Below are positions 3,040 through 62,395 of a DNA stretch of 64,000 nt, piece by piece. The DNA is taken from NCBI GenBank assembly GCA_905236245.1, contig CAJOPC010000005.1, positions 539 through 64,538 on the forward strand, in the 5' to 3' direction. Position 1 is the stretch's first letter. Each line of letters starts with the position of its first letter. Under the pieces are notes generated by a model. That model saw only the letters and a program-made list of their open reading frames with translations, was not told the origin of the DNA and did no database searches. This DNA comes from an uncultured Alphaproteobacteria bacterium. GTDB lineage: Bacteria > Pseudomonadota > Alphaproteobacteria > CAAHEQ01 > UBA3637. Position numbers and translations under genes: made by a program.

Positions 3040-3858
3040 TTATTTGCATAAGATAAATTGCCCACTTTCACCGCAATAATTGCCTTGGCAATAAGGAGTT
3101 TGTTCTTCGGGACAGCAAGCGTTAAACCGGCATACATTATTCCCATAATATGACACACAAGAAGGTGTGCACCCCGTCTCGTTGCAACGATATTCTTTAC
3201 ACACTCCGTTACTGTAATATTCAAAACAATAAATGGCTCCTGCACAACATGAGACATTTAGGCAATTCCCATCCTCATTTTGCTTGCGACAATAACCTGT
3301 TTGTCCATCCTGACAACAACTATAGTAGTCATCTACAACATGAGGATGAGTCCCTTCGGAACAACAAACACCGCCTCCATCAGGTAAAGCGTTTTTATAT
3401 AAAATGCCTTGGCAACATCCATAATTGTCTCCATAAGAGAACCTATGCATAACATAAGGTTCTCCAGAACAACAAATATTATAATCATATGCACAATTGC
3501 CATCGGGATCTACTGTTTTGCAATATGGAACACCATCACAACAAATGGGGTATTCAGGGCCATATATTCTTGTGGCTGTTTGATTGGCATTACAACACAA
3601 AGGAATGCTTTCATTACAACATTGGTTTGTTTCTTTATTGCACACATTATCCCCTTGACAACAATAATCGCCGCATTGTTTTTCGGCTGGGCATGTTTCT
3701 CCGGGTGAATCTCCGTCTTTCCCATTAAAATGTATGCCGATTGAGTCAACGCCCGTTCCGCGATAAATGGAAGATTGTCGGCTTTTGCCTCCTCCTCCGA
3801 AGGCAAGTACACTTGTTGCCACTAAAATTGCAGAGCCAAATAATAATACTTTTTTCAT
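3040..3858 (-). CDS. secreted hyper-cysteine-rich protein, family member 1
   Basis: The ATG at 3858 is preferred over the TTG at 3873. Signal peptide MKKVLLFGSAILVATSVLA is followed by the leader module FGGGGKSRQSSIYRGTGVDSIGIHFNGK, shared with the ORFs at 12719 and 61511. The remainder has 36 Cys, including 10 CC doublets. Confidence 0.75.
   Translation of the reverse strand: MKKVLLFGSAILVATSVLAFGGGGKSRQSSIYRGTGVDSIGIHFNGKDGDSPGETCPAEKQCGDYCCQGDNVCNKETNQCCNESIPLCCNANQTATRIYGPEYPICCDGVPYCKTVDPDGNCAYDYNICCSGEPYVMHRFSYGDNYGCCQGILYKNALPDGGGVCCSEGTHPHVVDDYYSCCQDGQTGYCRKQNEDGNCLNVSCCAGAIYCFEYYSNGVCKEYRCNETGCTPSCVSYYGNNVCRFNACCPEEQTPYCQGNYCGESGQFILCK
3718..3801 (-). repeat. coding segment for the conserved post-signal leader module (copy 1 of 3)
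   Basis: Encodes FGGGGKSRQSSIYRGTGVDSIGIHFNGK. The same 28-aa module is encoded at 12827..12910 and 61568..61651. Confidence 0.8.
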
Positions 3859-12718: not shown

Positions 12719-13948
12719 ATGTGTCAAAATAAAATTCATACCCTCCCGCGTTGTCACAAGCATTTAATTTTTAAAGTATTTTTAGCTATTTTTCTGGCCT
12801 TAATTGTTGCGTCGTCTGCATTTGCTTTTGGCGGTGGAGGCAAAAGCCGCAAGTCTTCTGTTTATCGCGGAACGGGGGTGGATTCCATTGGCATACATTT
12901 TAATGGAAAAGGCGGTGATTCTGAAGAGGAATCGGAAGAGACATGTCCTGCCGAAAAACAATGTGGTGATTATTGTTGCCAAGGGGATAATATTTGTCAA
13001 AAAAATGAGGCAGGAGAGTTTCAGTGTTGTAATGAAAAAACAGGACATTGTTGCGTTGATAATCAATCGGCTTATAAGACTCCATGGACTTCTAATTCAT
13101 GTTGTTCGGGAAGTCTGTATTGTTATGGGCGAAATGAAGATGGTACTTGTCGGTATGATTGGTTTGCTTGTTGTCCTAGCACATATGAGCTTCATAATGA
13201 TTATTGTTGTAATGGAAAAATATTTATAGGAGCGGGTGTTGATGGTGCGGACATGTGTTGTTCTGCTGATACACAGCCTTCGTGTTCTATTCGAAATAAA
13301 GAAGGGGTTTGTAAAGGCGCATTTTGTTGCCCAGGAGATGTAACAAAAAGGCCGGAAGGTGATGTGTGTTATGCAGCAGAATTTACGGGCTGCAAAACAA
13401 ATTCAGATTGTGATTCTGGTGAATATTGTAAGTTAACGGGAGATAAGTGTAAATATCCTAGCGAGGGAGTTTGTACGGCCATAGGAGATTATTTGGAACC
13501 AGAAAATGAAATAAGCGGTTTGGGTAGAGTGAAGATAAGTCTTGATGATCGGATGACATGGTGGTCGGCGGATAATTGGTGTAAAGCCCAAGGAATGCAT
13601 TTACCAGAAGTGGAAAAATTTAATTGTTATATGAGCGGGACCAGTACGCCGGTAATATCTGGAATCGATCGCCGAGGGGCTTGTTGCGCTGGGGATGATG
13701 TTGAATGTGAAATTATTGGTGATTGGTTTTATGAAAATAAAAGGGATAAATATAGTCCTATTTTATATGAATTAAAACAAGCTATTGGAGAAGAACATTG
13801 GGGTTGGTGGTATTATTGGACAGCCTCTCGTGTATATGAAAAAGATGATGATGGTTGTTTTTACTTTAATATATCGTTAGCACATGCTGATGTCGGAGTA
13901 TACAATCGTGATTACTTGGGCATGCGAGCTCTTTGTGTTAATGATTAG
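12719..13948 (+). CDS. secreted hyper-cysteine-rich protein, family member 2, with lectin-like C-terminal domain
   Basis: ATG 12719 has an AAGGAG SD 5 nt upstream. The hydrophobic leader ends ...SSAFA and is followed by FGGGGKSRKSSVYRGTGVDSIGIHFNGK. The block ETCPAEKQCGDYCCQGDNIC is shared with member 1. Many CC doublets follow, and the tail is Trp/Tyr-rich (MTWWSADNWCKAQGMHLP ... YYWTAS ... ALCVND). Confidence 0.75.
   Translation: MCQNKIHTLPRCHKHLIFKVFLAIFLALIVASSAFAFGGGGKSRKSSVYRGTGVDSIGIHFNGKGGDSEEESEETCPAEKQCGDYCCQGDNICQKNEAGEFQCCNEKTGHCCVDNQSAYKTPWTSNSCCSGSLYCYGRNEDGTCRYDWFACCPSTYELHNDYCCNGKIFIGAGVDGADMCCSADTQPSCSIRNKEGVCKGAFCCPGDVTKRPEGDVCYAAEFTGCKTNSDCDSGEYCKLTGDKCKYPSEGVCTAIGDYLEPENEISGLGRVKISLDDRMTWWSADNWCKAQGMHLPEVEKFNCYMSGTSTPVISGIDRRGACCAGDDVECEIIGDWFYENKRDKYSPILYELKQAIGEEHWGWWYYWTASRVYEKDDDGCFYFNISLAHADVGVYNRDYLGMRALCVND
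12827..12910 (+). repeat. coding segment for the conserved leader module (copy 2 of 3)
   Basis: Encodes FGGGGKSRKSSVYRGTGVDSIGIHFNGK. Confidence 0.8.
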
Positions 13949-61403: not shown

Positions 61404-61417
61404 GCAAGTTAAATAAA

Positions 61418-61447
61418 AGCGCCCCCGATTTTACGGGGCGTTTTTTT
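61418..61447 (+). terminator. rho-independent terminator after pnp
   Basis: Stem CGCCCC (61420-25) / GGGGCG (61435-40), followed by T7. Confidence 0.75.
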
Positions 61448-61510
61448 GTCCTTGGTCCGTTAAAAATATCTGATAAAATCAGAACAGAATGTTTTAGGAA
61501 AGGAAAGTGT

Positions 61511-62395
61511 ATGCGTAAAGTTTTGTTATTTGGCACGGCAATTTTGGTGGCGACAAGCGTTTTAGCTTTCGGTGGAGGCGGTAAAAATCGTAAGGGTTCT
61601 ATTTATCGAGGAACTGGTGTTGATTCCATTAATGTGCATATAAATGGGAAGGGCTCAGAAGAAGGAACGGATGAGCACGGTTGCCCAAAGAATAGTTCCT
61701 ATAATGAACAGTATGACCAATGTTTTTGTGAAAATGGCTATTATATGTGGAATCATGTTTGTGTTCCGACAAGAGCAAAATGTGATGAGTTGGGCGGTTA
61801 TTGGTGCACAAATAGTGAATATTCTACGTGTGAAAAAAGTGAATCCGATTGTTATGTTCTTTGCCCAGAGGATAGAAAATGTAATGGAACTTGCTGTGGT
61901 GAGGGAAACACATGTCATCAAGACGAGCTGGGTGTTTATCAATGTTGTAATGATGAAATAGGTCAATGTTGTGATGCTGGAGAATCACGAGGCTATGGCC
62001 GTGATTATGGAGGAGACAGGTGTTGCCCATTAAATAGTGTTTGGACACGTGATGGTTTTTGCTTTGAGAATGCGGCTATATATAAAAATTTTCCATACCA
62101 AGGAAATGATCATTATTTCATGAATGAAGCAACATGTGGGGTTTTTGATAGTGAGGGGAATTGTATAGAATTAAGTTATATTCCTCAAGAGGGTTTAGTT
62201 TGTTATGGGATTGATTCTAATGGGCATTGTCGCTCGATGGTGCCTGCTTGTCCAGAAGGACAAACGCCGTATTGTCAAGTTTGGAAAAAGGGTGATTATG
62301 AATTTGCTGATTGTAATGCTGGCCCGGGGCGGCAGTGTTGTTCTGGCACAGTAATTTATGGTGAAAAGGGAAATCTCGATATTTGTAATCAGTAA
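61511..62395 (+). CDS. secreted hyper-cysteine-rich protein, family member 3
   Basis: AGGAAAGGAAAG SD. The signal peptide MRKVLLFGTAILVATSVLA is almost identical to member 1. The leader module is FGGGGKNRKGSIYRGTGVDSINVHINGK. It has 30 Cys with CC doublets, and the C-terminal CPEGQTPYCQ echoes member 1 (CCPEEQTPYCQ). Confidence 0.75.
   Translation: MRKVLLFGTAILVATSVLAFGGGGKNRKGSIYRGTGVDSINVHINGKGSEEGTDEHGCPKNSSYNEQYDQCFCENGYYMWNHVCVPTRAKCDELGGYWCTNSEYSTCEKSESDCYVLCPEDRKCNGTCCGEGNTCHQDELGVYQCCNDEIGQCCDAGESRGYGRDYGGDRCCPLNSVWTRDGFCFENAAIYKNFPYQGNDHYFMNEATCGVFDSEGNCIELSYIPQEGLVCYGIDSNGHCRSMVPACPEGQTPYCQVWKKGDYEFADCNAGPGRQCCSGTVIYGEKGNLDICNQ
61568..61651 (+). repeat. coding segment for the conserved leader module (copy 3 of 3)
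   Basis: Encodes FGGGGKNRKGSIYRGTGVDSINVHINGK. Confidence 0.8.

Follow-up and report, generated by a model that had tools for sequence, protein, structure and literature searches.

A genus-restricted N-terminal tag on cysteine-rich proteins of an uncultured alphaproteobacterium is uniform within genomes and may be a type IVb pilus secretion signal

The leader module and its carriers

The 64,000-nucleotide stretch analyzed here (the window) comes from the genome of an uncultured Alphaproteobacteria bacterium (1.12 Mb assembly, 39% G+C, 85% complete; labeled G000) and carries three genes, members 1, 2 and 3 of one family, whose products open with the same leader module: a Sec signal peptide followed by a short post-signal segment that we refer to as the tag (Table 1). 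We compared this module among the proteins of the genome and across the genus, and found that its peptide is kept uniform within each genome by selection, together with an exchange of leader DNA, while it diverges between species. We then considered which partner in the cell might read it.

Table 1. Features of the tagged genes in the window and of the pilus operon encoded elsewhere in the genome
Feature	Position	Strand	Remarks
Member 3 gene	61511..62395	+	294 aa, 30 Cys; from the list of open reading frames (ORFs) and translation; between pnp and htpG
Signal peptide, residues 1-21 of member 3	61511..61573	+	MRK, h-region VLLFGTAILVATSVL, AFG
Post-signal tag, residues 22-47 of member 3 (GGGKNRKGSIYRGTGVDSINVHINGK)	61574..61651	+	Gly run, basic stretch, conserved Tyr, core strand
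Core motif G-V-D-[AS]-I-G-V-H-[IF]-x-G, residues 36-46	61616..61648	+	Defined by residue frequencies in 162 sequences
Variable cysteine-rich body of member 3	61652..62392	+	EGF-like spaced Cys first, CC-doublet hairpins after
Member 1 leader (signal peptide and tag, residues 1-47)	3718..3858	-	Gene 3040-3858, 272 aa
Member 2 leader	12719..12910	+	Gene 12719-13948; extended n-region MCQNKIHTLPRCHKHLIFK, h-region, AFG, tag
Type IVb pilus operon, R64/TCP kind	G000:C12:7463-17530 (outside the window)		Pilin, TcpQ (PF10671), lipoprotein secretin (PF00263), PAP_PilO (PF06864), ATPase-like gene (labeled by eye, no Pfam scan), T2SSF

The signal peptide of member 3 has the generic features of a Sec and signal peptidase I substrate, namely the basic MRK, the hydrophobic VLLFGTAILVATSVL and A-F-G, and its h-region is unusually conserved, with a median identity of 89% among the G000 paralogs. 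Signal peptidase I is predicted to cut at A-F-G|G or at A|F-G. A19, F20 and G21 are invariant in a 16-leader alignment (A1), while only A19 and F20 are invariant in alignment A3, where relatives vary at G21; at positions -3 and -1 the relatives have small residues only (AFS, AFA, ALG). Since these small residues fit the -3/-1 rule and a lipobox-like AFS|C aligns at the same place, cleavage after AFG (or after A19) is likely. Residues 1-57 of member 3 include no Cys, so it has no lipobox itself. The lipobox-like ..LTAFS|CGG.. occurs in three relatives (G000 C26:40386-42032, G000 C26:24414-26528 and the database protein P0027); the Cys at +1 in these variants raises the possibility that the mature protein is attached by its N-terminus.

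Beyond the signal peptide, the order of elements is conserved across 162 sequences: [A/G]-[F/L]-[G/S/A]-G closes the hydrophobic region, and a Gly-rich basic spacer of variable length leads to the core, in which G is present in 100%, V in 94%, D in 78%, I in 80%, G in 88%, V in 77% and H in 90% of sequences, with [A/S] before the I, [I/F]-x after the H and a final G in 72%. Of these sequences, 140 have an aromatic residue no more than 9 aa ahead of the core. In an AlphaFold2 model of member 3 computed from a 40-sequence alignment, residues 1-50 have a pLDDT below 50 and no secondary structure, and the body is predicted confidently from residue 51 onward (pLDDT 83-97 for residues 51-180). The model suggests that the tag acts like a linear motif, unpacked on the body, and not like part of a folded domain. 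A fold search with the model gave no significant match in the PDB (the best, to EGF-repeat proteins, had an E of 0.14), members 1-3 had nothing significant in Pfam or NCBIfam, and no curated family of either database covers the tag.

The module heads 22 ORFs in G000, with a degenerate copy in a 23rd. A search with a leader profile found it in 14 of the 21 genomes of the genus and not in any of 59 genomes representing the other 15 genera of the order, and an exhaustive hidden Markov model (HMM) search of 1.84 billion representative proteins returned 117 carriers; a scan of genome contigs using a single protein as query yielded no relatives. In all 117 database matches and all 22 paralogs the module lies at the N-terminus, either at residues 1-50 or behind a short n-region extension. 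Nearly all of the 117 carriers are 4-14% cysteine, although one 125-aa match has no cysteine. The sequence-only reading had proposed that the first ~47 residues have a role beyond that of a generic Sec signal, and the strictly N-terminal position, the predicted disorder of a segment unpacked on the body and the restriction to a single genus all support this proposal. Its conservation also extends well past the pair of members from which it was first noticed, given that the module is kept in all 22 paralogs of the genome and in related species.

Two classes of leader were apparent in G000. In fifteen members the n-region is short (MKK or MRK), while in a handful, mostly long proteins and including member 2, it is extended to MC..N....C.R..HLIYK. 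This cytoplasmic extension, which contains two Cys and a His, is found at 12719-12775 of the window and in G000 C9, C26:26659, C30:922 and C30:25962, and is reminiscent of the long signal-peptide regions seen in exported proteins of very large size. The start codon of member 2 coincides with the start of the database representative P0007, and a Shine-Dalgarno-like AGGAAAGGAAAG lies directly 5' of the member 3 ATG.

Constraint on the leader within and between genomes

The sequence-only reading had counted 11 synonymous codon differences and one replacement between members 1 and 3 over V4-K25, and our codon comparison agrees, down to every codon pair that it quoted: the synonymous changes fall at V4, L5, L12, A14, S16, V17, L18, A19, G21, G23 and G24, the sole replacement is S9T, and the other 10 codons are identical. 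Codons 26-47 have 9 synonymous changes, 6 replacements and 7 identical codons, with six synonymous changes and no replacement in the core I31-I40. By the Nei-Gojobori method, codons 2-47 differ by 25.5 synonymous changes on 34.8 sites (proportion of synonymous differences, pS, 0.73) and by 13.5 replacements on 103.2 sites (proportion of replacements, pN, 0.13). After Jukes-Cantor correction, dN is 0.14 and dS at least 2.8, which places omega (dN/dS) at no more than ~0.05 and far from 1 (Fisher exact p = 6e-11).

To judge whether any shared history is left in the DNA, every codon was redrawn using the leaders' own codon usage. The observed leader pS of 0.732 matches the simulated saturation of 0.734 +/- 0.088, indicating that the leader DNA of members 1 and 3 retains no memory of shared descent beyond what the peptide demands. 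Since the synonymous sites of this pair are fully randomized, recent duplication, conversion or RNA-level constraint cannot explain their similarity. The leader peptide of members 1 and 3 is thus held by strong purifying selection rather than being young DNA, as had been argued from the sequence. The companion claim that the two bodies are largely unalignable is a slight overstatement: BLASTP aligns 149 aa at 29.5% identity (E 8e-5, pN 0.46), and the motif CPE(E/G)QTPYCQ is indeed found in both.

Across the whole family in G000, the leaders of all 231 pairs had a pS of 0.645 and a pN of 0.207. Replacements were rarer in the post-signal tag (pN 0.16, pS 0.67) than in the signal part (pN 0.27), compared with a pN of 0.40 in the best-aligning stretch of the bodies; 115 of the 231 pairs have any alignable body at all. 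Because global alignment of the bodies inflates their pS through misalignment, we compared the leaders with simulated saturation instead, which is 0.707 +/- 0.013 with the leaders' own codon usage and 0.752 with that of the genome. The family-wide leader pS is therefore somewhat below saturation. Thirteen of the 231 pairs fell below all 300 simulations, the lowest being the tandem genes C4_44428 and C4_45390 (pS 0.15), so a minority of leaders share DNA ancestry that is younger than that of their bodies. Purifying selection thus emerges as a robust result for the peptides of the whole family, with DNA homogenization acting alongside it.

We next compared G000 with 40 tagged genes from 11 other genomes of the genus. 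The leader has a flavor of its own in each genome: GGGGKSRKSSVYRGTGVDSIGVH in G000, GGGGGGGRTRRFYERHGGVDAIGVH in G008, GGGGGGHDSTKYNRHxPGVDNFGVH in G017, and A-GGS(I/L)FG..K.K..NP.GV.SI.VH in G015, G016, G001, G003 and G019. A tree of the leaders required 20 changes of genome label, compared with 37.6 when labels were shuffled (none of 200 shuffles was as low), and the 22 leaders of G000 accounted for 3 changes versus 18.3 with shuffled labels. For at least eight G000 members, in turn, the best body match is a protein of another species whose leader has the foreign flavor. The clearest case is C26_40386 of G000 and L105 of G008, whose bodies are 73% identical and whose leaders are 40% identical, each having its own genome's flavor; their downstream neighbors are also held in common (77% and 92% identical). 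Leaders therefore cluster by genome and bodies by orthology, which means that the tag evolves in concert.

Member 3 illustrates the consequence. Its three orthologs in other species (P0094, P0120 and P0121), matched at 49-55% identity, are 53-59% identical in the body, 40-61% in the tag and 57-75% in the signal peptide, while its paralogs in G000 have tags with a median identity of 77% and signal peptides with one of 89%, on bodies that hardly align (~38%). The tag is thus conserved across species no better than the body, and what selection preserves is uniformity within the cell. The peptide had been described as almost invariant, and this description stands within the genome but not across species, where orthologous leaders diverge as fast as their bodies.

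In G008, G016, G017 and G020, leader pS ranges from 0.03 to 0.56, far below saturation even though the bodies are dissimilar; most leader pairs of these genomes lie below saturation, while pairs in G015 are near it. Such low values on dissimilar bodies indicate that conversion or exchange of a 5' cassette is part of the mechanism. In G000, most of this conversion signal has decayed and the peptide is now maintained by purifying selection alone. Old conversion and parallel co-evolution may both contribute to the uniformity, synonymous sites being saturated even between species.

Candidate readers of the tag

The uniformity of the tag within a genome, across unrelated cargos, makes it probable that a single partner recognizes every tagged protein in the cell and co-evolves with the tag. 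The best candidate for this partner, which we suggest tentatively and by analogy, is the cell's type IVb pilus machine, which would make the tag a pilus-docking and secretion signal. Type IVb pili are, to our knowledge, the only machines that send folded soluble proteins out of the cell under the direction of a flexible N-terminal segment located after the Sec signal.

In this mechanism, which we offer as a reasoned hypothesis, the first ~47 residues would comprise a cleavable Sec signal peptide and then a flexible address tag of ~26 residues, in which a Gly run and a basic stretch precede an aromatic residue and the core G-V-D-x-I-G-V-H-x-x-G, set on many different disulfide-rich proteins that resemble lectins or adhesins. 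The cargo would fold and be oxidized in the periplasm, the tag would hook a pilus component such as the tip or a minor pilin, and the folded cargo would leave through the single secretin with the growing pilus, to be released or displayed on it. Such a system would extend to many substrates what the N-terminal type IVb pilus secretion signal does for TcpF and CofJ. In its fullest form, this proposal makes the tag a multi-substrate secretion and display signal for an exchangeable repertoire of at least 20 disulfide-rich lectin or adhesin cargos, with tag and receptor co-evolving in each species and the tag replacing the pilin fusion of sister lineages; we hold this complete version a little more loosely than the identification of the pilus as partner.

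Several lines of comparison point toward the pilus. In TcpF and CofJ, a flexible segment after the Sec signal hooks the minor-pilin trimer, and the type IVb secretion signals need a key aromatic residue, fall into clade-specific motifs (FxxxYxSxS, SxGGAFT and YGF) and do not cross-bind between species (PMC9565799). The tag resembles them in being a short segment, predicted to be flexible, directly after the Sec signal peptide; its largely conserved aromatic residue may be a counterpart of theirs, and it has small residues comparable to the Gly and Ala of the SxGGAFT class; where the TcpF/CofJ motif varies by clade to fit its cognate pilus, the flavor of the tag varies by species. In both cases a pilus operon is encoded, although passage of folded cargo through the pilus secretin is established for TcpF and CofJ and proposed here. 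Unlike these signals, the tag is longer (~26 aa), has a strongly conserved GVDxIGVH core and shares no sequence similarity with them, and while TcpF and CofJ are each the one substrate gene inside a pilus operon, 22 substrate genes are dispersed here. The type IVb signal is the closest functional analog, and the tag is at most a candidate member of that class, given that its genes lack the linkage to the operon.

The secretin complement is consistent with this assignment. G000 and 18 of the 21 genomes of the genus encode exactly one secretin, the three genomes in which none was detected being the least complete ones, and in G000 it belongs to the type IVb pilus operon (Table 1). As judged from the gene content, this secretin is the only wide outer-membrane channel found that would pass folded, disulfide-rich cargo. 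G000 also encodes two DsbA-like oxidoreductases; DsbB was undetected in this 85% complete genome, despite these two enzymes and dozens of cysteine-rich exported proteins.

A second line of evidence comes from the cargo. Homologs of the lectin-like head of the tagged protein P0003 include proteins with a type IVb pilin N-terminus (GRSMVEMLGVLAI.GVLSVGG...), which matches the G000 operon pilin at 44-80% identity, and pilin-fused and tagged heads can be closely related: P0131 and L107 of G020 are 72% identical, P0131 and P0043 63%, and P0140 and P0068 63%. Closely related heads therefore occur behind either the tag or a type IVb pilin N-terminus, and the two are interchangeable on the same heads. 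The tag itself is not a class III pilin signal, since the true pilins of G000 have G-x4-E (GRSMVEMLGVLAIVGV...) and the tag does not.

A number of observations weigh against the pilus. The 22 tagged genes are scattered among housekeeping genes, and none adjoins the pilus operon in the genomes checked; in G000, G004, G008, G017 and G020 they are on contigs without the operon, and the nearest, in G019, is ~18 kb away. The tag has no sequence similarity to published type IVb signals. PilO is present in 74 of 80 genomes of the order, which makes the pilus machine a core feature there, and with the machine order-wide and the tag confined to one genus, the co-occurrence of the two is uninformative. 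Across the genus, the number of tags seems to fall as that of pilin fusions rises, but not significantly (rho -0.29, p 0.2), in a comparison that is biased by the origin of the query. The shared heads could reflect plain module shuffling among surface proteins, and another outer-membrane route could be missing from an assembly that is 85% complete.

It is also conceivable, though we consider it unlikely, that the tag binds some other partner in the envelope, for example an outer-membrane protein, lipopolysaccharide or an undescribed export route, and serves as a handle that keeps its cargo at the surface without the pilus. Such a handle is equally compatible with the selection on the tag, its uniformity within genomes, its disorder and its restriction to the genus, the three AFS|C relatives would suggest that the mature N-terminus is the point of attachment, and tagged genes are never inside the pilus operon. 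There is a precedent in the MAT fibers of Bdellovibrio bacteriovorus, a 21-member family with a conserved post-signal segment and variable, swappable adhesive modules at the C-terminus, in which the conserved N-terminal domain is presumed to anchor the variable tips by binding a cell-surface element not yet identified (PMC10769870). The MAT domain differs from the tag in being folded, β-rich and ~130 aa long on trimeric fibers, whereas the tag is a disordered peptide of ~26 aa on cysteine-rich, non-fiber bodies. No candidate for such a partner was found: the neighborhoods are housekeeping, and a search around the C4 cluster identified housekeeping genes and unannotated proteins only. An envelope handle would further not explain the specific alternation of the tag with type IVb pilin N-termini on the same heads, and folded, disulfide-rich proteins need a wide channel, of which the pilus secretin is the only one found.

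The uniformity of the leader might instead require no dedicated partner, if it were a family-specific signal peptide and spacer shaped by general export constraints (SRP/Sec targeting, access of signal peptidase, delayed folding of Cys-rich domains) and kept uniform by 5' gene conversion. The leader DNA that is younger than the bodies in G008, G016, G017 and G020, and the 13 of 231 G000 pairs below saturation, are what this explanation would predict, and an extended n-region, common in large exported proteins, is found in the longer members. Signal peptides that are conserved in a family beyond generic Sec needs are known, among them YSIRK-G/S, KxYKxGKxW and ESPR, and the Gly-rich post-signal peptide N22 of CsgA addresses the outer-membrane channel CsgG. 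In contrast with these, the motifs are absent here (Pfam/NCBIfam) and the core follows the cleavage site: the most conserved part is a motif of 8-11 residues located 15-25 residues past that site rather than the signal peptide, and it persists where synonymous sites are saturated. Moreover, other Cys-rich exported proteins of G000 use ordinary signal peptides without a tag, so export in itself does not require one. We therefore regard the lack of any partner as improbable. Targeting of the curli type was rejected, as CsgG is absent from G000 and from 20 of the 21 genomes of the genus.

Pairing of the tags with one another, as a β-strand zipper that forms mixed oligomers or the base of a fiber, would account for concerted evolution without an identifiable partner, since compatibility would force uniformity within a genome. 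The alternating hydrophobic pattern of the core, V-x-x-I-x-V-x-[IF], and the trimeric fibers of Bdellovibrio lend themselves to this idea, but the AlphaFold monomer has no strand propensity, and such pairing of a very short tag would leave the Gly run and basic stretch unexplained, making it highly improbable. Lastly, covalent joining of an oligo-glycine N-terminus to peptidoglycan or protein by an L,D-transpeptidase or a sortase, for which the predicted mature start Gly-Gly-Gly would chemically be a good acyl acceptor, is effectively refuted because both enzyme families are absent from G000. YkuD is missing from G000 and from 18 of the 21 genomes of the genus, with no relation to the presence of the tag, and sortase is missing from all 21. 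Outer-membrane proteins are linked to peptidoglycan in Brucella and Coxiella, by an L,D-transpeptidase in Brucella, and the absence of YkuD from 18 of 21 genomes is unusual for Alphaproteobacteria.

Whichever partner reads it, the arrangement recalls the dockerin-cohesin system of cellulosomes, in which one small conserved module, species-specific and matched to one type of receptor, is set on many unrelated bodies, so that it is alike within a genome and differs from species to species. Dockerin is a folded, calcium-binding domain of ~70 aa, usually C-terminal and found in Gram-positive bacteria, and has no sequence or structural relation to the tag.

How folded proteins are chosen for secretin machines, in type II secretion as in type IV pili, is a long-standing question, and the only defined linear signals that we know of are those of TcpF and CofJ, each of which serves a single substrate. 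A short, conserved, genus-specific tag that is found on dozens of unrelated cargos and matched in each species provides natural covariation data for its receptor, and as a portable peptide it can be tested on reporters. Uncultured gut Alphaproteobacteria with small genomes may in this way deploy a large, fast-changing set of proteins that bind hosts or glycans. What this analysis adds is the formal saturation test, the concerted evolution between species, the rejection of three routes of anchoring or export, the finding that the only secretin system is that of the type IVb pilus, and a quantified interchange of tag and pilin N-terminus. It also carries a lesson of method, in that dN/dS within a genome reveals constraint, while only comparison between species reveals the constraint to match the genome.

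Pilin-like genes and genomic context

G000 has at least seven pilin-like genes, three of which encode proteins of 729-990 aa. No similarity to TcpB or CofB was detected in these large candidates (C10:24690, C1:201 and C26:538), and C10:24690, the minor pilin candidate, gave neither a significant match in the PDB nor a Pfam family. The proteins encoded at C26:538-3396 and C1:201-3173 are ~950-990 aa long, have near-identical type IV pilin N-termini (G|RSMLE... and G|RTVLE...) and contain 87-92 Cys in their bodies; they may be giant minor-pilin adhesins, and BLAST detected no similarity between them and the tagged bodies (E < 1e-5). Elsewhere in the genus, G012, G016, G019, G018 and G002 each gave at least 12-19 strong matches to pilin-like paralogs of 350-500 aa, many of which extend into lectin-like heads, and these genomes have few or no canonical tags.

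Member 3 occupies a slot between pnp and htpG, with a 107-bp spacer at 61404-61510. Because an opposite-strand glycosyltransferase follows pnp instead in the closest available relative (PNPase 78% identical), the insertion of member 3 appears to be lineage-specific. Neither this relative nor the ortholog P0094, which lies on a short contig with other neighbors, supports positional orthology of member 3.

The 60 bp 5' of the family members are unrelated, except for the ribosome-binding site and a few common hairpins that resemble terminators. Since the upstream DNA is not conserved, the similarity of the family begins at the ATG. The hairpins, which are GC-rich, followed by T runs (e.g. cgcctctcatcaaggcg+TTTT) and located just 5' of the ribosome-binding site, look like terminators or attenuators; rather than at member 3, they are found at C4:45390, C4:44428, C40:2130, C4:53901 and C34:18240 of G000.

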